Positions 1,398-29,171 of a DNA stretch of 64,000 bases are shown one piece after another; position 1 is the stretch's first letter, and each line of letters opens with the position of its first letter. A program made the translations under genes and the position numbers. This DNA comes from Escherichia phage Av-05. The stretch lies in the sequence record KM190144; one strand, given 5' to 3'. A model generated the notes under the pieces. It saw nothing but the letters and a program-made list of their open reading frames with translations, made no database searches and was not told where the DNA came from.

Positions 1398-1446
1398 AAG
1401 ACCTCCATATTTTCTATTCCTACCATAGAAGGTAGTTTACCACGAA

Positions 1447-1484
1447 TAACGATAAAAATAAAGCCCTTACCCTTAAATAAGGGC
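1447..1484 (-). terminator. Rho-independent terminator after spanin genes
   Basis: Hairpin GCCCTTA/TAAGGGC (1463-1484) followed on minus strand by TTTATTTTTAT. Confidence 0.55.
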
Positions 1485-1492
1485 ATTGTCAA

Positions 1493-1786
1493 CTATTTGT
1501 CTGAAGAAAATATTGTCTTTACATACTGCTGCAACGTTCTTAATTTCATGCGATCTTCAGCAGCATTAATGTTGTTTTTCTTGATCACCTCGATGGCATC
1601 TGCGTTGCTGAGACCACGAGGCAATTTTTCAGGTTCTTTCGGTGGTATCATAGCTTCAGCGGGTGGTCTTGCTAAAAGATCGCTTATCACAACTTCTTTT
1701 GCAACAGGAACAACTCTCTCAGGTGGTGAAGTGCACCCTGTTAACATAAACAATAGAAAAGGAACCATGATAACATACTTTTTCAT
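1493..1786 (-). CDS. o-spanin (outer-membrane lipoprotein, Rz1-like)
   Basis: Signal peptide with lipobox LTGC, Pro-rich mature region, start overlaps stop of upstream i-spanin. Confidence 0.6.
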   Translation of the reverse strand: MKKYVIMVPFLLFMLTGCTSPPERVVPVAKEVVISDLLARPPAEAMIPPKEPEKLPRGLSNADAIEVIKKNNINAAEDRMKLRTLQQYVKTIFSSDK

Positions 1787-2184
1787 TTAGACCCCAAACT
1801 GTCGTTATAGATATCAACAAACTGGTTATCGAGGCAAACCTGTTTTCCTGCTTGTGTCTTGCTATAGCTTTTAATCTTTTTGTCAAGATTTTCTTTCAAT
1901 TGATTGTTGATTTCCCTCTCTTGCACTAACATGGTTGACAATTCATCTATCTTATCCTGCTGTTGCTTTTTAAAAGCGTTATTATGATCCCGAACTTGCT
2001 GGTTAATCCTCTCCCATTTAAGATCAGTGTCGCTGACACCTGCGTTGTACGACGATGTTAACTGGTCATTATACCAATGTTTTATCCCCAAGATACCACA
2101 GACGAGAACCACACCACACAAAACAACACCTATCTGTTTTATGTTCTTAGAAAAGAAAGTTAACAGCGTTTTAAACCATATCAT
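1783..2184 (-). CDS. i-spanin (Rz-like, N-terminal TM plus coiled coil)
   Basis: N-terminal hydrophobic segment IGVVLCGVVLVCGILGI, charged helical remainder; ATGA overlap with upstream gene. Confidence 0.6.
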   Translation of the reverse strand: MIWFKTLLTFFSKNIKQIGVVLCGVVLVCGILGIKHWYNDQLTSSYNAGVSDTDLKWERINQQVRDHNNAFKKQQQDKIDELSTMLVQEREINNQLKENLDKKIKSYSKTQAGKQVCLDNQFVDIYNDSLGSK

Positions 2185-3536
2185 GATATATCCCCATCAC
2201 ACTCAATAATGTTTTCAATTTTCAGTGTTGTTTTTCTGTTTTCAGAAATATTAATCTTATCAGTTATGATATCGTATTGCATCTCAGATGGATTACTTAT
2301 TGAGACATCTAAGAGAACTGCGCCAGGTTTATACGTTTCATATCCATAACCATCTGTCTTACCCTCCTTGCACAGGTATTCGTAATATTCTCTTGCCTTC
2401 TTCTCATCAACATAAAGGCTGAGAGTGCGAAAATTATTTGCTATATCTTCTTTGTAAAGCCCAACATAATGTGTATCTTTTGTTGGCATCATGAGATAGA
2501 AAACTTCAGCAGGACAAACTCCATATAGTTTTGTAAAGTATTTCCTGCCTGTTGCTTTTCTTAATCTTTGAAAGATATTAAACATATTAATTTTAGATAC
2601 ATCATTAAACGGCAACGGTTGCACAGGGGTAACATTTTTGTCTACCTGCTGGCAACAAGATTCTAATCTGTCCAGGCACTCAACCAAAGAATCAAGTGAA
2701 AACTGTTTTGTCTCATCAAAGATATCAGACAGTTTCATTCCGTACATCCCGCTAAGATGTGACTTTGCCGATTCCCAACTTTCTATCTGAAGGCTAGCAA
2801 TGGTCATGGACAGTTTCATTGTCTCTTTTTTCGAAATTGTATAGCCACGAGATTTGTATTTTTCAGATCTCAAAAGTGACATAATCGGGTATTCAGTCTT
2901 ATGATTTACAACTAAGACCCTTTGAGCGATATGTTTTAAGAAGTTGCTATCAAATTCCCACACACCATCTTTGAAGTTAAAAGCACCCATATTTATTGTA
3001 AAATCAAATTTGCTAAAGATATCTTCTGTTGTTTTGAACACATCCATAGCCACACATTGAAAGACAGGCTCTTGTCCAAAGTAAAACATCACACTCTTAT
3101 CTGTCACACCAACCTTTTTGGTTGGTAAATTATCATCTTCATCACCTAAATAATCGCATTCATTGTCATATTTTCTACCTCTAGAAAGAGGATCTGTAAA
3201 ATTTGAAAATGAGGTGTCGCCGTGATCAAGTTTATAGAAATTCCTAAATGCTATTTTTTGTTCTGAGGCCCAGCCATTTGTTTTCTCAGACAAATCATAC
3301 TTTCCTGACAAGAGTCTTTTATCCATCATGTACGCAATGAATATCTCAAGATTTTCCCAAGATGGGAAATACAAATCAAGATCGTTGACTTTACTATTAG
3401 AGAACAAAGAGGTTATTGCCCCGCCAGCTATCTTAACATTCAGCTTTGACAATAAATCATAAACACCTTTTGGTATAAAAGAGCGCAAAATGTCATACTC
3501 TCTTTGAAAATCTTCTTTTTTGAAAACATGCAACAT
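2181..3536 (-). CDS. Hypothetical 452-aa protein with nucleotidyltransferase-fold-like motif, co-transcribed with spanins
   Basis: Start at internal ATG 3536 with GGAGAG RBS; motif KIAGGAITSLFSNSKVNDLDLYF fits hG[GS]x(9-13)DhDh of Pol-beta superfamily; no lysozyme motif recognised. Confidence 0.5.
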   Translation of the reverse strand: MLHVFKKEDFQREYDILRSFIPKGVYDLLSKLNVKIAGGAITSLFSNSKVNDLDLYFPSWENLEIFIAYMMDKRLLSGKYDLSEKTNGWASEQKIAFRNFYKLDHGDTSFSNFTDPLSRGRKYDNECDYLGDEDDNLPTKKVGVTDKSVMFYFGQEPVFQCVAMDVFKTTEDIFSKFDFTINMGAFNFKDGVWEFDSNFLKHIAQRVLVVNHKTEYPIMSLLRSEKYKSRGYTISKKETMKLSMTIASLQIESWESAKSHLSGMYGMKLSDIFDETKQFSLDSLVECLDRLESCCQQVDKNVTPVQPLPFNDVSKINMFNIFQRLRKATGRKYFTKLYGVCPAEVFYLMMPTKDTHYVGLYKEDIANNFRTLSLYVDEKKAREYYEYLCKEGKTDGYGYETYKPGAVLLDVSISNPSEMQYDIITDKINISENRKTTLKIENIIECDGDIS

Positions 3537-3582
3537 CTTAACTCTCCTTGAGTACAAAACAAGATGCGTAAAGACTAGCACA

Positions 3583-4067: not shown

Positions 4068-4143
4068 TGGTGTGACGGACAGGATTCGAACCTGTGACCA
4101 CCTAGTCTTCAGCAAGGCACTCTACCAACTGAGTTACCGTCAC
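4068..4143 (-). tRNA. tRNA-Phe (GAA), CCA encoded
   Basis: Acceptor GTGACGG/CCGTCAC, D-arm ACTC..GAGT, anticodon loop CTGAAGA, T-loop TTCGAAT. Confidence 0.8.
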
Positions 4144-4148
4144 ATGAT

Positions 4149-4225
4149 TGGTAGGCGATGAGGGACTCGAACCCCCAAAATTCAGGTTCTAAGCCTGACA
4201 TGTATACCAATTCCATCAATCGCCC
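4149..4225 (-). tRNA. tRNA with anticodon UAG (Leu codon family) but class I (short variable loop) architecture
   Basis: Acceptor GGGCGAT/ATCGCCT, anticodon stem TCAGG/CCTGA, loop CTTAGAA, 5-nt variable loop, T-loop TTCGAGT, discriminator A, CCA encoded. Confidence 0.6.
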
Positions 4226-4239
4226 ATCTATATTAACAG

Positions 4240-4431
4240 TTACGGTTTTCCGCGATACACAGAAATAGTTTTTCCATTGGCATTGATCACGTAGGCGGTC
4301 TGATCCTCAGACAAAAATACTTTTTGATCAACGCCGGAAATAGCTATAGACTTTTGATGAGCGCAATACCCAACAATTTTGCCACAAAAAATTTGTTCAT
4401 CATTTGGGGAGACTACTTTAACTGTTAACAT
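4240..4431 (-). CDS. Small hypothetical protein (about 64 aa)
   Basis: ORF track trimmed to internal ATG preceded by GAGGA; upstream part of track ORF overlaps tRNA-Pro. Confidence 0.3.
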   Translation of the reverse strand: MLTVKVVSPNDEQIFCGKIVGYCAHQKSIAISGVDQKVFLSEDQTAYVINANGKTISVYRGKP

Positions 4432-4473
4432 GGTATCCTCTGTACATTTCTGTTTTGATATGTATATGTTTGT

Positions 4474-4551
4474 TGGTCTGTCCGGTTGGATTTGAACCAA
4501 CGACCTGATCATCCCAAGTGACCCGCGCTACCCAAGCTGCGCTACGGACAG
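4474..4551 (-). tRNA. tRNA-Pro (UGG), CCA encoded
   Basis: Acceptor CTGTCCG/CGGACAG, D-stem GCGC, anticodon loop CTTGGGA, T-loop TTCAAAT. Confidence 0.8.
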
Positions 4552-4635
4552 AGAGATGTAGATTTTAATTGTCCCAGAATCTACAAACTGGTATCGCTGG
4601 CTAGGTGATATCTGTGACTTGATTAAGTCAAGAAT

Positions 4636-4726
4636 TGGCGGTTCCTGAAGGATTCGAACCTTCGGTGGGGAGATTCCTCCCAACGGCTTAACAGGCCGTC
4701 ACCATCGACCACTCGGTCAAAGAACC
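4636..4726 (-). tRNA. Class II (long variable arm) tRNA with anticodon GUU (Asn codons); identity ambiguous
   Basis: Acceptor GGTTCTT/AGGAACC, Ser-like D-arm ACC-GAGTGGTCGAT-GGT, anticodon stem ACGGC/GCCGT with loop CTGTTAA, 19-nt variable arm TGGGAGGAATCTCCCCACC, T-loop TTCGAAT, discriminator G, CCA encoded. Confidence 0.55.
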
Positions 4727-4735
4727 AGAATATTT

Positions 4736-4812
4736 TGGTGGATCTGGTTAGATTCGAACTAACAATCCCTCGATTAAAAGTCAAGTGCCTTAAACCATTT
4801 GGCTACAGATCC
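4736..4812 (-). tRNA. tRNA-Lys (UUU), CCA encoded
   Basis: Acceptor GGATCTG/CAGATCC, anticodon loop CTTTTAA, T-loop TTCGAAT. Confidence 0.8.
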
Positions 4813-5034
4813 TTTAAATTATCTTTAAAATAGCTAATTACTCGCACATAATTAGCTATACGCAACAGCCCTCTAGGGAGGGCACACTAATGATAGATTA
4901 CGATTACATGACCATCATGAGTGTTTGACTTACGCCAGTAAAGAGCGGACTGCTCTGGGGTATCGGTAAGATGGTTGCAGCCATCCACCGAAAAATCACA
5001 CCAAGCAACTAAACAAGCTACATTAAAGATAACT

Positions 5035-5123
5035 TGGAGGAGGCTGACAGAATCGAACTGTCACCATATCTCTACAGCGGGACTGGGTTCAAACCAGCTT
5101 GTGCACCATGCACCCCAGCCTCC
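5035..5123 (-). tRNA. tRNA-Ser (UGA), class II, CCA encoded
   Basis: Acceptor GGAGGCT/AGCCTCC, anticodon stem GCTGG/CCAGT loop TTTGAAC, long variable arm, T-loop TTCGATT. Confidence 0.65.
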
Positions 5124-5201
5124 AAAAATAGCCTCTGCCGAGAAGATACACCCAACAAAGACGGCGCTCAGGTCCGAAGAAATCTGAGCCTTGACATACA
5201 G

Positions 5202-5295
5202 TGGAGGAAGATGCCAGACTTGAACTGGCACACCCATTTCTGGGTTACTATCTCCTTAGCAGGGAGACCCCTTACCAAATTAGGGTTAATCTTCC
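5202..5295 (-). tRNA. tRNA-Ser (GCU), class II, CCA encoded
   Basis: Acceptor GGAAGAT/ATCTTCC, anticodon stem TCTCC/GGAGA loop CTGCTAA, long variable arm, T-loop TTCAAGT. Confidence 0.7.
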
Positions 5296-5316
5296 AATAC
5301 CTTAGTAATTAAAAAC

Positions 5317-5406
5317 TGGTGGAGAAGGAGAGAATCGAACTCTCAAGCCGTTTTACCAGTCAGCACATTTCCAATGTGGTTTCGTCGCCAATCGATTTGC
5401 TTCTCC
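5317..5406 (-). tRNA. tRNA-Ser (GGA) candidate, class II, CCA encoded
   Basis: Acceptor GGAGAAG/CTTCTCC, T-arm GAGAG-TTCGATT-CTCTC, anticodon loop TTGGAAA with one mismatch in stem; D-arm irregular. Confidence 0.5.
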
Positions 5407-5415
5407 GTTTTAACT

Positions 5416-5491
5416 TGGCAGGGGATGGTTGATTCGAACAACCGATCACGGGGTCAAAGCCCGTTGCATTAGGCCACTATGCTAATCCCCT
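5416..5491 (-). tRNA. tRNA-Gln (UUG), CCA encoded
   Basis: Acceptor AGGGGAT/ATCCCCT, D-stem GCAT/ATGC, anticodon stem ACGGG/CCCGT loop CTTTGAC, T-loop TTCGAAT. Confidence 0.8.
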
Positions 5492-5492
5492 T

Positions 5493-5574
5493 TGGCACGA
5501 GAGTGAGGAATCGAACCCCTTAGTCACTGGTTTTGGAGGCCAGCCTTCACCCAGTGAAGTTACGCTACTCTCAT
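5493..5574 (-). tRNA. tRNA-Trp (CCA) candidate with atypical, extended D-arm region
   Basis: Anticodon loop CTCCAAA followed by ACC as in E. coli tRNA-Trp; T-loop TTCGATT; acceptor ATGAGAG/CTCTCGT; 79 nt before CCA. Confidence 0.5.
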
Positions 5575-5597
5575 TAAAAACTATTTTCGGAATGGGT

Positions 5598-6140
5598 TTA
5601 TATATAAAACGCCAACATCACTCTTTCTCTTGAGAAAGCTCGGTCTTCAGGAACAACACTCTTCAGTTTCCAACCAACATAAATTCGCCAGTAAAATTGT
5701 TTTCCAAACAGTCTGAAAGACGGGACAAACGCGAATAAACCCCACGCATTGTCATTCCACATCAGCAAGTAGCCTTGTTGATTATCCTCCACATCAGAGC
5801 TTACATGGATGTTTCCTTTCCACTTTGTCACAGATGTAATTTCACGCCCAAGTGCGTGATAGGAGAAATTGTAGGCTTTATTTCTCCACAACCAAGCAAC
5901 TCGTTGCAGATAAACACCAAAACTCCCTATCTTGCGAACTTCTGCCCATCTCTCTATGTGTCCTTTATCACCATCTATAGGATTATCATATGTTTCCATC
6001 CACCTGAAAATATAAGGTAGATGCCCTGTCTTCTCATTATAGAACGGAACAACAAAAGGAGCCAGAATAACACAGAGAACCGACATAACTGGGTCAAGAG
6101 GTGCTAACAGAATCCACGATAAATATTTCAAGTATCTCAT
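5598..6140 (-). CDS. Hypothetical protein (180 aa, hydrophobic N-terminus) embedded in tRNA cluster
   Basis: ORF track; no recognisable motif. Confidence 0.45.
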   Translation of the reverse strand: MRYLKYLSWILLAPLDPVMSVLCVILAPFVVPFYNEKTGHLPYIFRWMETYDNPIDGDKGHIERWAEVRKIGSFGVYLQRVAWLWRNKAYNFSYHALGREITSVTKWKGNIHVSSDVEDNQQGYLLMWNDNAWGLFAFVPSFRLFGKQFYWRIYVGWKLKSVVPEDRAFSRERVMLAFYI

Positions 6141-6367
6141 GCAGGATCAAGCCTAGATATAATGTACTGGTTTAAATCTGAATATGGGAAGATACTTTCA
6201 AAGATAACCTGTTTAAATCTGAAACCGCACAAACCGAAAAGTACCTTCTGACACTCCCCAAAAGAACAATCTTTACCAACTTTTATCACAACCGTATCGG
6301 CAACCTGCACACTTTCTATCTCTTTAGGTTCATGATGCCGTACTATGATTACTTTAGAAACCATCAT
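6137..6367 (-). CDS. Hypothetical protein (76 aa)
   Basis: ORF track; 4-nt overlap with downstream ORF suggests coupling. Confidence 0.4.
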   Translation of the reverse strand: MMVSKVIIVRHHEPKEIESVQVADTVVIKVGKDCSFGECQKVLFGLCGFRFKQVIFESIFPYSDLNQYIISRLDPA

Positions 6368-6492
6368 ACTCGTCCGTATTAAAGCCTTCTACTAAAGATA
6401 GAAGATGTCTAGGGTTGGACCGCAAACTCAACCCCATGGAATTTGTTACGGTCTTCAGTTGACCCAAGCGGATTTCATTGACATCTTTTAGA

Positions 6493-6567
6493 TGGAGCAT
6501 CCAGAGGGTATCGAACCCTCGACTTCAGCTTGGAAGGCTGTAGTTTTCCCAATTAAACTATGGATGC
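6493..6567 (-). tRNA. tRNA-Gly (UCC), CCA encoded
   Basis: Acceptor GCATCCA/TGGATGC, D-stem GTTT/AAAC, anticodon loop CTTCCAA, T-loop TTCGATA. Confidence 0.75.
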
Positions 6568-6572
6568 ATATT

Positions 6573-6648
6573 TGGTGGGAGTGGTAGGCTCTGCCCCTAC
6601 GTCCTCTCGATTATCGGTCGAGCGATCTACTAACTGATCTACACTCCC
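6573..6648 (-). tRNA. tRNA-Ile (GAU)-like gene with non-canonical T-loop and C33
   Basis: Acceptor GGGAGTG/CACTCCC, D-arm GATC-AGTTAGTA-GATC, perfect anticodon stem CTCGA/TCGAG with loop CCGATAA, T-arm GTAGG-GGCAGAG-CCTAC lacks TTCGA, CCA encoded. Confidence 0.45.
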
Positions 6649-6716
6649 AAACTGTACTGGCCCAACAACCACGATTGGAGGGTATCGTCACACATCAAAG
6701 CCAGTACAGATTTAGT

Positions 6717-6806
6717 TGGTGTGCCGTGATAGAGTCGAACTACCCGAGTCCCTTTCGAGACAGGAGATTTACAGTCTCCCCCGCTACCCCTACGGTCTAA
6801 CGACAC
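6717..6806 (-). tRNA. tRNA-Tyr (GUA), class II, CCA encoded
   Basis: Acceptor GTGTCGT/ACGGCAC, anticodon stem GGAGA/TCTCC loop CTGTAAA, long variable arm, T-loop TTCGACT. Confidence 0.75.
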
Positions 6807-6807
6807 A

Positions 6808-7155
6808 TTAACCTTGTTTGAATTGAACAATATCCGTCGAGAACGGTTTAGCTGCCTTAATGGGAGCTTTTTCTGAGTTATCTTTTTCGAGTAACTCTTC
6901 GTTTTCCTCATCAAAGTAATCAGAAAGCATCTGCTCACCTTTCTCAATAACATAGCGAGCAATATTTTCTCTGATATTGTCTTTTGTATTCACATTCTTC
7001 ATCAAATCCCTAAGAACCTGATGAGCTTCAGGAATCATTGCAATCAGATTCGTTTTCAAATCTAGGATATTTTTCTCTAACTGAATTGCATTAGATTCCT
7101 CTTTCAGAGGACGACCTTTTCCTCTTCTACGTTTTGTAAGCTGCTTAGTAGCCAT
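6808..7155 (-). CDS. Hypothetical basic protein (about 116 aa; MATKQLTKRRRGKGRPLKE...)
   Basis: ORF track trimmed to ATG at 7155 downstream of a consensus promoter; the longer track ORF overlaps tRNA genes. Confidence 0.45.
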   Translation of the reverse strand: MATKQLTKRRRGKGRPLKEESNAIQLEKNILDLKTNLIAMIPEAHQVLRDLMKNVNTKDNIRENIARYVIEKGEQMLSDYFDEENEELLEKDNSEKAPIKAAKPFSTDIVQFKQG

Positions 7156-7174
7156 TTTAAAACCCCACTTAATG

Positions 7175-7203
7175 ATATTATCAAATAAAAACATATCTGT
7201 CAA
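7175..7203 (-). promoter_or_regulatory. Sigma70-like promoter (TTGACA-17-TAATAT)
   Basis: Minus strand -35 TTGACA at plus 7198-7203, 17-nt spacer, -10 TAATAT at plus 7175-7180. Confidence 0.6.
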
Positions 7204-7240
7204 GTGGTATTTTAACATATTTACCAAGAAATTGAAAGTT

Positions 7241-17640: not shown

Positions 17641-18012
17641 TCTATCACACACTTAAACGCAAAGCAACATAAAAATTTTTGTTGAATGATAATCATTCTC
17701 ATTTGTAGAATGACAGACAGGGGCGGTGTCTTATCCTCCCCCGTTGACAATCGTCGCCGTAGTTTGAAGTTTATAGCCGTTCTCGGCTTATCTCTTTGTT
17801 AGACAGATATTAGCATAGTTGGTAAAGAAATCAAGCGTTAATTGCAATCTTTACGTTTCTTTACAAATTTATTTTTGACGAACTACCGGCGATCGACCTT
17901 TCAACCAGCGCCCTGGTATGTTAGCCCCGCCTTTACGCCGTGGGGATGGCGTTTCCTCTTCTGTATGTTAGGCATTATAAGCCCAATCCCTGGGCTTGTC
18001 AAACATTTTCAT

Positions 18013-25876: not shown

Positions 25877-26077
25877 ATGAAACGTTTTACTTATGGCGTT
25901 GTTGGCGGTTCTGTTTCAAACCGGTTTTACAATACCGAGCGTGGTGCTAAAAATGCCGCTACCCGTGAACATGGCAATAGTGTGAATTTACAAGTCGGTT
26001 ACATTAGCAAAATTAGCGGTATGTTTATTCCGGTTGCTCAACGCGGTATGTATTGCATAGGCTGGATGCCAATGTAA
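25877..26077 (+). CDS. Hypothetical early protein (66 aa)
   Basis: ORF track; RBS GAAAGGTGAAT. Confidence 0.45.
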   Translation: MKRFTYGVVGGSVSNRFYNTERGAKNAATREHGNSVNLQVGYISKISGMFIPVAQRGMYCIGWMPM

Positions 26078-26092
26078 AAAGGAGTAATAAAA

Positions 26093-26284
26093 ATGGATGT
26101 ACCACAAGTTAGAAAGGTATTAGCAGCGTTACGCTATCACAATTATAGCAAGGTGAAGAATGATCCTGATTATGTTGATTCAAGCCTCGAGGAAGACACA
26201 TTGCAAGCCATAAGCTATATGCAGGAATTGCTTAAGCGTATGACAGAGAAGAATAGATCTGATTATATAGGTGAAGAGATTTAA
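26093..26284 (+). CDS. Hypothetical early protein (63 aa)
   Basis: ORF track; RBS AAAGGAG. Confidence 0.45.
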   Translation: MDVPQVRKVLAALRYHNYSKVKNDPDYVDSSLEEDTLQAISYMQELLKRMTEKNRSDYIGEEI

Positions 26285-26317
26285 TCTCTTACAACCGCAC
26301 AAAGTAAAATCGTACAA

Positions 26318-26344
26318 GGGGCGCATTAAGCGCCCTTTCTTTTT
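26318..26344 (+). terminator. Rho-independent terminator at end of early block
   Basis: GGGGCGC-ATTAA-GCGCCC followed by TTTCTTTTT. Confidence 0.6.
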
Positions 26345-26719
26345 GCCCCAGCAAGTATGATAAGTTTTATCTATCAAAACACCACACAGAACAAAAATGA
26401 ATAAAACGCGGTATCGAGCTAAACGAGGGTGGGCAATACAACGGCAAGGCTAAACACTTAAGGCCGTTACAACGCGATTTAGGCCGCTTAAAATCGATCT
26501 TTACTATAAACAACCTCCACAAAACGACCAAAACGACACAACATGACGTAAATGATAACCATTCTCAATAACATAAGAATTTTTATGCAATTTTAGTGAA
26601 TATCTATTTAAATGATAATGACTCTCAACAACAAACCAACACGACCGAAGCGATTTAATCGCCTATCACAAAATAAACCATTTGTAAAGAACAATTTAAA
26701 AGCTGCGTAGGTGGCGCGA

Positions 26720-26960
26720 CCGTAGGGAGCGACACAATAACGCAGTAGTAACCCCTCCCCCACTCCTTACAGTCGCCCGGTATCGGGGCAGCGTTATTGT
26801 GTCGCTACGCGACAACGCGTTAACAATTTTGCAAGATTTTATTAATAATTTAACTGTTATAATTCCACATAGTCGCTACGCGATTAAGCGCGATGCGCTT
26901 AACCTGCAAAGCAGGCTTCTTTGCAAAATTGTTAACCTACTGCGTTATTGTGTCCGGTAC
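26720..26960. repeat. Inverted and direct repeats built on GCGTTATTGTGTC / GTCGCTACGCGA
   Basis: AGCGACACAATAACGC (about 26729) vs GCGTTATTGTGTCGCT (about 26791), third copy at about 26941; GTCGCTACGCGA twice. Confidence 0.5.
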
Positions 26961-27837
26961 GGATTAGTTACATATGTAACTAACAACTAACGTTGCTAAA
27001 TTGTGTCCATGAATGGATGAGGAATAATATTCCTCCCAGCTATCGCTGCAATATTGTGTTGTAAAACGATTAGCTGAGAATCAGCTAACCCGTGAAACGG
27101 GCTAAATTATTCTCATTAATCCCCCGATTATTCCTCAGTAAATCACTTGTTTATCACGTTTAATCAGCCTGTTTAACAGGCCAGTAATGTGATGATCATT
27201 AACCACGATTATTGTTTGTATTATCCAGAATAAACCGCTTATCATGTTGTTATTATGTTGCCAAGTGCCTGAAATGCCAGATCAATTTGGTCACTGCGTG
27301 ATTATGATTGCGACAATAATTTGTTTGTGATTTGCATCTATTCATAACAAAATTGCTATTATGTTGCTATTCTATTGTTAAACACCCTTTTATCTTTTCC
27401 CTTGCATTTTCGTTATATTTGATTTGTTATCGTTTTCTTTCATTTTGTTTCGTTATTGAAAACAAGAATTATTATCATCTATGTGCCTTAACAGGCTGGC
27501 GGGTCTGTTAGTGGTCTGGTTGTCTGGCCTGTTATTGTTAGCTTGCTTATTGTTGTGTGGTGTATGTATCAGTTAGCTAGTACATTGTGTGGTGCGCATA
27601 ACGTGTATTATGTTAAATCAGGTGGCCCACAAGTAAGGCCGTATGTCAATAGCAATAAGTGCTGTGTGTGGTAGGACTGGCCTATCAGTGTGCCCCTTTG
27701 TTGTGTGATGCTCTCAGTGTGTGACCTGTCTGCTGTGTGCGCTGCGTCAAATCTCGAGCGGTTCTCGATCGCAATAGCTGTAAGATATTTTGTAAAGATT
27801 CGTAGTTTTTCTTGACACCCGCAATCGTCCGTCTAAC

Positions 27838-27893
27838 CCTTCAGAGATAGATCCTTCAGAGATTTATCTGGGCTTTTTACCCTTCAGAGATAG
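27838..27893. repeat. Three tandem copies of CCTTCAGAGAT(A/T)
   Basis: CCCTTCAGAGATAGAT, CCTTCAGAGATTTAT, CCCTTCAGAGATAGAT read directly. Confidence 0.55.
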
Positions 27894-28201
27894 ATACATG
27901 GCAAATTCGCACAAATTTACCACCTGCCATGCCACGTCACTAATCTCGCAAGGATATTTCTGTAAGTGAACCTGCACACAATGCAGCACGCATCTTGTTG
28001 TGTGGGGAGGGTGGGGGTAATAATCAGGAACTGGTCTGACAGTGATAACGCATTGGATAAAACTCTGCGGGGCTTGGTGATGATATTTGTGTGGGTAGAT
28101 GATGATGGATAAGAGATAAGACACTTGTCTCCGACAGGGGTGGGGTGTGGAAAAGAAATGGGCCTGTTGACCCATTGCGATATAGAAATGAAATGGTTAT
28201 C

Positions 28202-28453
28202 TCACCATTGACCAGGTAAACCAATATCAAGACCAAGCTCGTGACATTCATCCCGGTCAAGACTTTGATCCCAGTTTGTAACTGTTCTCTCTGTGTGGTG
28301 GGTGTATGATGCTCTCTGTAACTGCTTTGGCATCTTTTTTGTCTGGGATTTCCCGAAAAGAGGTGTGTTGTCATTAAGCCTTCCGGCAGCCTTTTCACCC
28401 TTTTTGACTTGTCCTCCACGGGCATTCCACTGCTCCAGTGTCCTGTAACACAT
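28202..28453 (-). CDS. Hypothetical protein (83 aa)
   Basis: ORF track; AGGAGA RBS 8 nt upstream. Confidence 0.35.
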   Translation of the reverse strand: MCYRTLEQWNARGGQVKKGEKAAGRLNDNTPLFGKSQTKKMPKQLQRASYTHHTERTVTNWDQSLDRDECHELGLDIGLPGQW

Positions 28454-28847
28454 AAAAGCATTCTCCTGTGATATCTGGTGTAAGGATGATGACAGATTGT
28501 ACCAGAGGTGTCAAGTCTGTTGACCGGAGTGTGTGGGAGGGGGTGTCGCTATAAAAAATTTTTGGAGAGCTTTCCATGACTTATTCTGTAGCTTCAGACA
28601 GGCCATAAACCCAGATGTGACGGGGCTTTCAGCTATGTTGTGTGTTGATCGCAAATAAGGATAAAATAATCAATATAAATGCAGATAAATGTTGTTTTAT
28701 TGTGTTTGTGTAACTGGTGTGTCATGTCTTGACAGGTTATGACCTGTACATATTTTGTACAATTGTGTGGTGTGCAAAGTTTGGGTGGGACTTCACCAGA
28801 CGGGGTAGGGTATGGTGGAGAGCAGGGGCATGGTTAGCCCCATATGA

Positions 28848-29171
28848 TCATGGTTGTGTGTCTGTTTGTTTGAACTGGCCCTTTGAACGTATTACATAAC
28901 CACAACCATATTTTCTCAGCCAGACCAGTTCCCATGGGCTATCACTCAGGTTCTTCCTGTTTATCTCTTTTAGTTGGGCGACCGCATCGTCCCATGATGT
29001 GACTTCGAGATAACCGATAAGACTGTCCTCCCCAAAATCTCCGTAATCAAATGTGCATCTGACCTTAGCGATAAACTCTGTCTGTGGATTTTCTGGTTTT
29101 ACAAAAGCCCAGTGAAAGATTTGTTCTGTGCAATGCTCATTAACCCATCTGATTTGTGTGGTCATAATCAC
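28848..29171 (-). CDS. Hypothetical protein (107 aa)
   Basis: ORF track. Confidence 0.45.
   Translation of the reverse strand: MIMTTQIRWVNEHCTEQIFHWAFVKPENPQTEFIAKVRCTFDYGDFGEDSLIGYLEVTSWDDAVAQLKEINRKNLSDSPWELVWLRKYGCGYVIRSKGQFKQTDTQP

Follow-up and report, generated by a model that had tools for sequence, protein, structure and literature searches.

The convergent gap of phage Av-05

We consider here 64,000 nucleotides of Escherichia phage Av-05 DNA (sequence record KM190144), hereafter the window, and within them the interval 26345-28157, where two gene blocks converge and leave between their terminators a gap with no credible gene. The rightward block stops at 26284. It is closed by a plus-strand intrinsic terminator at 26316-26338 (a 9-bp stem with six G-C pairs, then a run of T), which forms the left edge of the gap and is kept in phages TH18, phi92 and DE16. 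Facing it, a leftward gene at 28202-28453, coding for 83 amino acids (aa), is followed by its own intrinsic terminator on the minus strand (28157-28176), the right edge. Our subject is the direct terminal repeat (DTR) that we predict in this gap, together with the conserved sequences that accompany it.

The phage belongs to the Vequintavirinae (rV5-like) myophages. This assignment is based on vB_EcoM_TH18, classified in that subfamily, which is 89% identical; with three partial assemblies it makes up the only four nearest high-identity records (about 89%) to the 1.95 kb around the locus. A more sensitive search gave weaker matches, for the most part to the first 340 nt, in about 150 records (155) of rV5-, phi92- and phAPEC8-like myophages. 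The window also encodes a tRNA cluster, NAPRTase, a tape-measure protein and others typical of such phages.

An earlier note, made from the sequence of the window, had seen no convincing open reading frame (ORF) over about 1.9 kb, and this is borne out. Six ORFs of 51-145 aa lie in the gap or overlap it, and not one matches a PHROG family. The flanking ORFs (25877-26077, 26093-26284 and 28202-28453) all do, with E values of 1e-25 to 1e-41, the 83-aa product matching phrog_25175 (E = 4e-41). Alignment of the gap with TH18 displays insertions and deletions of whole modules, with lengths that are not multiples of three and are therefore incompatible with coding. The curated PVP-SE1 record has an equivalent gap of 2.2 kb, likewise gene-free. 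Several public records nevertheless annotate the equivalent gap, the repeat included, with 'hypothetical protein' genes of 30-70 aa (GEC_vB_MG, 1421-3274; KPP-1, 2705-3518; GAP31, 2228-2782); these are probably over-calls. A second apparently gene-free stretch, also a gap in the TH18 annotation, lies just right of the 83-aa gene (28454-28847). Its plus strand is G+T-rich, and it has promoter-like sites at 28486-28523 (minus) and 28729-28756 (plus).

The predicted terminal repeat and its candidate signals

The same convergent topology is found in TH18, Hena1, Gotham, PVP-SE1 and KPP-1, and in several relatives the gap houses a DTR. One of 343 bp is annotated in phi92, another of 519 bp in Erwinia phage Hena1, and Gotham carries one of 459 bp (PMC7471380). 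For Klebsiella phage KPP-1, a DTR of 514 bp was placed at 116316-116829 from two-fold read coverage and PhageTerm, which classed the packaging as T7-type (PMC9862379). With Schickermooser (328 bp) and BME3 (342 bp), the pattern reaches both phAPEC8- and phi92-like phages (sources for these six short-DTR phages: PMC9862379, PMC7471380, PMC6563267, PMC12210895).

The ends of three of these repeats are homologous to sites in the window (a slash marks the boundary). The published KPP-1 coordinates map exactly onto tgcta/AACACAATTC (AACAC) and GAGCTGTCCGTC (GTCCGTC)/tagcac. In Hena1 the annotated ends are gtgcta/AACACTTTTC and GTTGTCCGTC/taacag, and in Gotham, reverse-complemented and slightly diverged, atgtca/GACAAGTTTT and CCGTCCGCC/tggcag. 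The window reads ttgtta/AACACCCTTT at 27381 and AATCGTCCGTC/taaccc at 27833, and in a MAFFT alignment of 14 genomes these positions share columns with the boundaries of the references. This correspondence with three relatives whose ends are annotated or published (KPP-1, Hena1 and Gotham) leads us to predict a DTR of 453 bp at 27381-27833 (plus strand), with its left genome end at 27381 (TTA/AACACCC) and its right end at 27833 (CGTCCGTC/TAAC). The sequence occurs once in the window, as a collapsed assembly would show. Virion DNA would have it at both ends, beginning on the left with AACACCC and finishing on the right with ...CGTCCGTC.

A packaging or terminal-repeat boundary was among the functions listed in the earlier note, comparison with related phages being one way to check it. 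That comparison supports the proposal: phi92, Hena1, Gotham and KPP-1 all have an annotated or published DTR in the equivalent gap, and the ends of the last three align with 27381 and 27833. To judge by this homology, we probably have in this gap the genome terminus, or concatemer junction, of a myophage of the Vequintavirinae that packages unit-length DNA with short exact DTRs, in the manner of T7. Most likely, then, we are dealing with a feature known from relatives and not with a new kind of element.

Inside the predicted DTR lies an ultra-conserved 31-mer, TGTGGTGCGCATAACGTGTATTATGTTAAAT (27588-27618), 93-100% identical across genera. It is conserved in Seunavirus, Mydovirus, Henunavirus, Vequintavirus and Serratia phages, in the midst of flanking DNA that cannot be aligned, and it falls inside the annotated DTR of Hena1. 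Its core stands 214-216 nt from the right boundary in 10 of the 12 genomes having a boundary motif. It may be where the packaging enzyme, or some other protein binding at the termini, recognizes the DNA. Further right, 52 nt before the boundary, comes a conserved island, AGATATTTTGTAAAGATTCGTA (27783-27804, plus strand), of which 17 nt in a row are unchanged in GAP31 and PVP-SE1 (100% identity), at 194-195 nt from the 31-mer. The island is the innermost member of a motif family, (C)AGRGATAT, that includes three CCTTCAGAGAT direct repeats just outside the DTR (27838-27891, plus strand), the first of which begins 5 nt past the right boundary. Their copies, at 27838, 27853 and 27881, are the only three in the window. 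The earlier note had described them as tandem: the three copies are there, unique to the gap, but with spacings of 15 and 28 nt they are not strictly in tandem and go unreported by Tandem Repeats Finder. Counted from the right boundary, members of the family sit at -52, +8 and +23 to +98 in 13 genomes (overall span -53 to +98), and elsewhere each gap has 0-1 copies. We regard the CCTTCAGAGAT copies as candidate terminase-recognition repeats, putative sites for its small subunit. The sequences just past the two boundaries are also alike (AACAC... and TA[A/G]CAC...), which suggests one recognition motif for both cuts. Reading the 31-mer, or a TTGACA near the right boundary, as sigma-70 promoters was abandoned, as the spacing, judged by eye, is not conserved.

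The left part of the DTR is T-rich, with phased TTTCGTTAT-type tracts at periods of roughly 10 nt and 20-26 nt and tandem T-rich repeats at 27407-27456. This T-rich half accounts for the G+T peak of the locus: 300-nt windows at 27300-27750 reach 0.65, the maximum of the 64 kb (mean 0.495, sd 0.042). The strong G+T strand bias once ascribed to the whole region is real there, in its right half; the left, at 26350-26700, goes the opposite way, its G+T of 0.37 being among the lowest in the 64 kb (A+C-rich). On the plus strand, 8 of the 16 copies of TGTGTGG in the window fall within 27554-28764, and this cluster runs on into the second gene-free stretch, to 28764.

Several points weigh against this interpretation. 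The ends of Av-05 are placed by homology, their true positions could differ by a few bases, and TH18 and the other three closest records were opened elsewhere than at the positions equivalent to 27381 and 27833. A paper of 2012 calls phiTE, and likewise PVP-SE1, circularly permuted (PMC3475682), a statement that conflicts with the conserved boundary motifs we find in PVP-SE1. No terminase gene was identified in the window, where Pfam was searched with 8 of the 27 ORFs that reach 200 aa. The (C)AGRGATAT regular expression was composed after inspection of the data, and the analogy with T7 is one of architecture only. Attempts at widening the sample brought little: scans of IMG/VR with the DTR-start motif and the conserved islands returned few or no further genomes, and look-ups of contigs by exact protein only contigs shorter than 1 kb.

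Conserved elements left of the predicted repeat

A conserved multi-hairpin inverted-repeat element of some 250 nt (26703-26954) is separated by about 430 nt from the left end of the predicted DTR. At its head stands a conserved 23-nt sequence, GTGGCGCGACCGTAGGGAGCGAC (26711-26733). The outer stem joins perfect 18-nt arms of the GCGTTATTGTGTC family (26731-26748 with 26937-26954); a 16-nt segment of the left arm region, 26728-26743, is also perfectly complementary to an alternative partner at 26791-26806. Inside, a second perfect pair of 16 nt (26819-26834 with 26921-26936) forms the inner stem, and small hairpins are found between. The long nested inverted repeats of the earlier note are therefore confirmed, as perfect 16-18-mers of the GCGTTATTGTGTC family enclosing a second perfect pair. 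All seven ATTGTGT copies of the window fall within 26345-28850, and the density of perfect hairpins in 26700-27250 is about six-fold above the window average (+2.3 sd), which is not the maximum of the window.

The outer stem is perfect over 17-19 nt in each of the 14 genomes where the region is complete, and the sequence of its arms varies between and even within genera. In the corresponding alignment (A2), compensatory changes affect 14 of the 18 pairs, 99% of the cells are paired, and not one of 500 shuffles does as well; shifting the partner columns abolishes the signal. Over these 14 sequences and 18 pairs there is almost no G-U, so that the pairing is strictly of the Watson-Crick kind. 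The order of the core, and its position relative to the terminal repeat, are kept in at least six genera, and a comparable repeat exists in a second subfamily. Indeed, phi92 and DE16 have a long-range repeat at the same place, with perfect 15-nt arms in the former and 24-nt arms that are 83% complementary in the latter. The differences between the two are compensated, and TAGCGAGC precedes the arms of DE16.

To the right follows an array of modules (26955-27190), each combining one further 3' arm of ATTGTGT type with a mini-hairpin and a 17-20-bp palindrome, such as TTAGTTACATATGTAACTAA, GAGGAATAATATTCCTC or TTAGCTGAGAATCAGCTAA. Modules on this side of the element have been gained, lost or moved relative to TH18. 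A 52-nt module of three hairpins lying in the element itself (26869-26920) is 100% identical in TH18 (at about 8843-8894) and displaced there by some 350 nt to the right, with flanks at 89-92%, which points to recent relocation or gene conversion of the hairpin modules. GNA trinucleotide loops, tried as a signature of DNA hairpins, are only about two-fold enriched and not strand-specific, and were not used. A degenerate 21-mer of the conserved head, scanned against metagenomes, gave mostly chance matches in GC-rich contigs, with true relatives only in contigs L031, L065 and L017. In unrelated contigs (L037, about 700-870 on the minus strand, L053 and L096) we noticed the same head motif, GGCGCGASC..AG.GAGCGAC, within nested perfect stems, its mini-hairpin covarying (GC-GTA-GC, CC-AAA-GG); given the size of the database this could be chance, or else a wider motif.

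Conserved sequences are also found between the left terminator and the element. An A+C-rich block (26345-26500, plus strand) is common to phi92-like and phAPEC8-like phages, with about 73-75% identity in most of the 155 records. It includes the 25-mer TGAATAAAACGCGGTATCGAGCTAA (26398-26422) and a palindrome, GATAAG..CTATC, and may be a protein-binding or promoter-proximal block. Near its right end is a sigma-70-like promoter candidate on the plus strand (26466-26494; GTTACA, 17 nt, TAAAAT), with 9 of 12 matches to the consensus and pointing toward the DTR. Its -10 aligns with TAAAAT, TATTTT or TAAAAG in TH18, phi92, DE16, KPP-1, PVP-SE1 and Hena1; the aligned -35 is poor in several relatives.

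Then come two palindromes resembling Fur boxes, GTAAATGATAACCATTCTC and TTAAATGATAATGACTCTC (26548-26632), 60 nt apart with TTTTTATGCAAT between them (our repeat pair D6). They match the Escherichia coli consensus GATAATGATAATCATTATC at 15 and 13-14 of 19 positions, and are aligned in 5-7 genomes. Taking as Fur-like any site with at least 13 of 19 matches to GATAATGATAATCATTATC, and a first-order Markov model for the expectation, we count 3-7 Fur-like clusters per gap in eight genomes where 0.5-1.7 would be expected (P <= 0.02), an enrichment of 3- to 10-fold in all eight; the gap of Av-05 has 6 against 0.62. The best match in the window is 15/19, and scores rise to 16-17/19 in PVP-SE1, KPP-1 and phi92 (17/19 in phi92), one of these high-scoring sites falling within the phi92 terminal repeat. 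Some of the sites may be structural, because in GAP31 the equivalent hairpin is still paired and the Fur-like sequence is lost. A literature search returned no paper tying Fur boxes to lytic phage genomes, and no usable transcriptomics for this phage group. Elsewhere in the window an isolated Fur-like site, TTGAATGATAATCATTCTCATTTGT (17682-17706, 15/19), lies among small ORFs with locally atypical GC skew.

Could this be a locus for a noncoding RNA, as the earlier note also envisaged? The element at 26703-26954, with or without its flanking blocks, might specify a structured RNA transcribed from 26466-26494 or from a nearer promoter, the gap being both RNA locus and terminus. The strong covariation of the long-range stem and of local hairpins, a fold z-score of -6.9 and a promoter-like site aligned across subfamilies all speak in its favour; so does a TTGTCA...TAATCG motif of Seunavirus and Mydovirus that would put the start of transcription at the conserved 23-mer. 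The subfamily even offers a precedent, the pseudo-ToxI of phiTE (PMC3475682). Yet the reverse strand folds equally well (z = -6.2), with no strand preference, and the outer stem essentially lacks the G-U pairs that are usual in RNA helices. From these two features together we think it likelier that the arms pair as DNA, or are maintained by gene conversion, than that they act as RNA. There is, besides, no consistent terminator after the element, no recognizable promoter just upstream of it in the window and TH18, and no match in Rfam even at E values up to 10. We hold the RNA reading to be unlikely, keeping it for the inverted-repeat element only.

The Rfam 15 search itself passes only tRNAs at the gathering threshold, 26200-28900 giving matches at the level of chance (E > 2). 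The tRNA cluster (4068-9659) has about 15 genes. One Rfam tRNA at 6576-6648 (minus strand, 53 bits) is not listed by ARAGORN, and several ARAGORN tRNAs score lower in Rfam or are missed by it. A mimic of ToxI or pseudo-ToxI, with its tandem repeats of about 36 nt, was discarded as there is no ToxI-like sequence in the window. Sequences nearly identical to the 36-nt ToxI repeat turn up in 80 phage records, spread over many genera, and in Certrevirus CB7 a ToxI-like match (3501-3564) lies just downstream of tRNA-Tyr, outside the terminus gap.

A replication terminus or origin had been put forward as well, with GC skew as the check, and we find nothing specific to sustain it. The skew switches where gene orientation changes and is no evidence for an origin or terminus, and in the rV5 paper skew is likewise tied to gene orientation (PMC3606486). 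The reading would have the gap be, or contain, an origin of replication, with ATTGTGT/GACACAAT as iterons and the T-rich segment 27250-27480 as unwinding element. Repeated motifs do occur in both orientations, the adjoining T-rich segment has 68-75% A+T, and the region is gene-free with a conserved architecture. Clusters of hairpins, furthermore, are typical of single-strand initiation sites. Against this, the arms are free to change in sequence between genera while they remain complementary, which fits pairing better than an iteron recognized by a specific protein; no initiator gene adjoins the gap; and a tract of 85-90% A+T, together with the top hairpin density, is found instead at the divergent 13600-14200. 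We consider an origin in the gap improbable. The divergent intergenic region in question (13580-14260) deserves mention for itself. Twin hairpins, GTCCCCATTTCAGGGGAC and GTCCCCGTTTTGGGGAC, stand on either side of its segment 13626-13830, the most AT-rich of the 64 kb and a better candidate for unwinding, and the region's density of perfect hairpins (16 per 550 nt) is the highest of the window. The region might serve either for origin unwinding or as a site of divergent early promoters.

Finally, it is very unlikely that the hairpins and palindromes are selfish or recombinogenic repeats (MITE- or REP-like, or an invertible segment), functionless in the life cycle of the phage and piling up in a tolerant gap: modules were indeed gained, lost and relocated with respect to TH18, the 52-nt one being identical but displaced, and gene conversion could keep arms perfect, yet the core head, outer stem and inner stem are fixed in order and position in at least six genera, the internal segment is inverted in none of 14 genomes, and no recombinase or transposase was found nearby, so that the idea may explain the shuffled outer modules and not the conserved core. 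An inverton in the strict sense was rejected on these last grounds (the segment is collinear in 14 of 14 genomes, and no recombinase is seen near the locus).

A scenario for the junction, and its known counterparts

Coming back to the gap as a genome terminus, we may picture how its parts would work together. At each junction of a concatemer the repeat would be present once. Recognition by the terminase would involve the 31-mer together with the (C)AGRGATAT/CCTTCAGAGAT repeats on either side of the right boundary, cleavage would occur at both boundary motifs, and the DNA would be bent by the phased T-rich tracts at the left boundary. Duplication of the repeat would provide every packaged genome with one at either end. 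By analogy with the hairpin of T7, the inverted-repeat element, as folded single-stranded DNA, might take part in duplicating or processing the single junction copy, with the promoter-like site 26466-26494 supplying transcription into the junction. The G+T-rich top strand, which would be the 3'-ended one at the right terminus, may favour strand annealing or RecA-type pairing in the formation of concatemers, and the Fur-like palindromes could be bound by the host Fur or by a phage protein of similar specificity. Homology supports the position of the repeat, the boundary motifs, the 31-mer and its spacing; we infer the other steps.

What would be new here concerns the left part of the gap. The inverted-repeat element and the Fur-like cluster, conserved in Vequintavirinae and with positional equivalents in Stephanstirmvirinae, appear to be undescribed. 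Tentatively, and as a possibility that we rate well below the terminus itself, we put forward that they make up together a cis-acting module hitherto not described: a covarying Watson-Crick inverted-repeat element with its 23-mer head, joined to a cluster of Fur-like palindromes. The module, folded as single-stranded DNA (or RNA), would be required when the lone repeat of the junction is duplicated or processed, and it might recruit Fur to the genome ends. The enrichment of Fur-like sites at the ends suggests a link with a host factor.

With reference to practice, the true ends matter for annotation, as most records of this group were opened arbitrarily and several have spurious small genes in the gap. 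These phages are widely used in therapy and biocontrol work, and correct ends are needed for genome engineering, in-vitro packaging and the assessment of transduction risk. Candidate packaging signals for a large group of myophages are now available in the boundary motifs, in the 31-mer with its constant spacing, in the bracketing repeats and in the covarying inverted-repeat element.

How does this organization compare with known systems? In the cosB site of phage lambda, arrays of repeats bound by the small terminase subunit lie beside the cut that makes 12-nt cohesive ends. The ends predicted for Av-05 are long repeats in place of such cohesive ends, and our search of the window turned up no gene for that subunit; the likeness is in the three close direct repeats beside the predicted cut, with one more copy 52 nt across it.

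The concatemer junction of T7 and T3 has a terminal repeat of 160 bp, flanking arrays of short repeats, a promoter reading into the junction and a hairpin intermediate. Chung, Nardone and Hinkle reportedly proposed, in 1990, a hairpin-ended intermediate left of the T7 junction. Similarity with the gap of Av-05 is absent at the level of sequence, and is found in the layout: a single short repeat, short direct-repeat arrays, an inverted repeat a few hundred bp to the left and a promoter-like site directed toward the repeat. Unlike T7, Av-05 is a large myovirus that uses the host RNA polymerase, so that the pause mechanism of the T7 RNA polymerase is not transferable.

As for the Fur box of E. 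coli (GATAATGATAATCATTATC), the likeness lies in the palindromes with 13-15 of 19 matches in the Av-05 gap, enriched in all eight gaps. Many copies read AATGAGAAT..ATTCTCATT, which is not the exact consensus, and the sites are located in a terminus region and not ahead of an iron-uptake gene.

The repeats of phi92 type are closer, being alike in position and architecture, though they share neither the boundary sequence nor the 31-mer. Closest of all are the DTRs of the other Vequintavirinae, KPP-1, Hena1 and Gotham. The ends of Av-05 are predicted from sequence, in contrast to theirs, the DNA between the conserved islands cannot be aligned beyond the TH18 group, and where Av-05 and TH18 have CCTTCAGAGAT the relatives have ATCAGACATAGAG or TCAGGGATAT variants. 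The 31-mer and its spacing are nonetheless common to Av-05 and these references, and the predicted 453 bp fall within the range of lengths known for Vequintavirinae and Stephanstirmvirinae. In KPP-1, Hena1 and Gotham the repeat occupies the same gap between the same gene blocks, with homologous boundaries, TA/AACAC... and ...GTCCGTC/TA.

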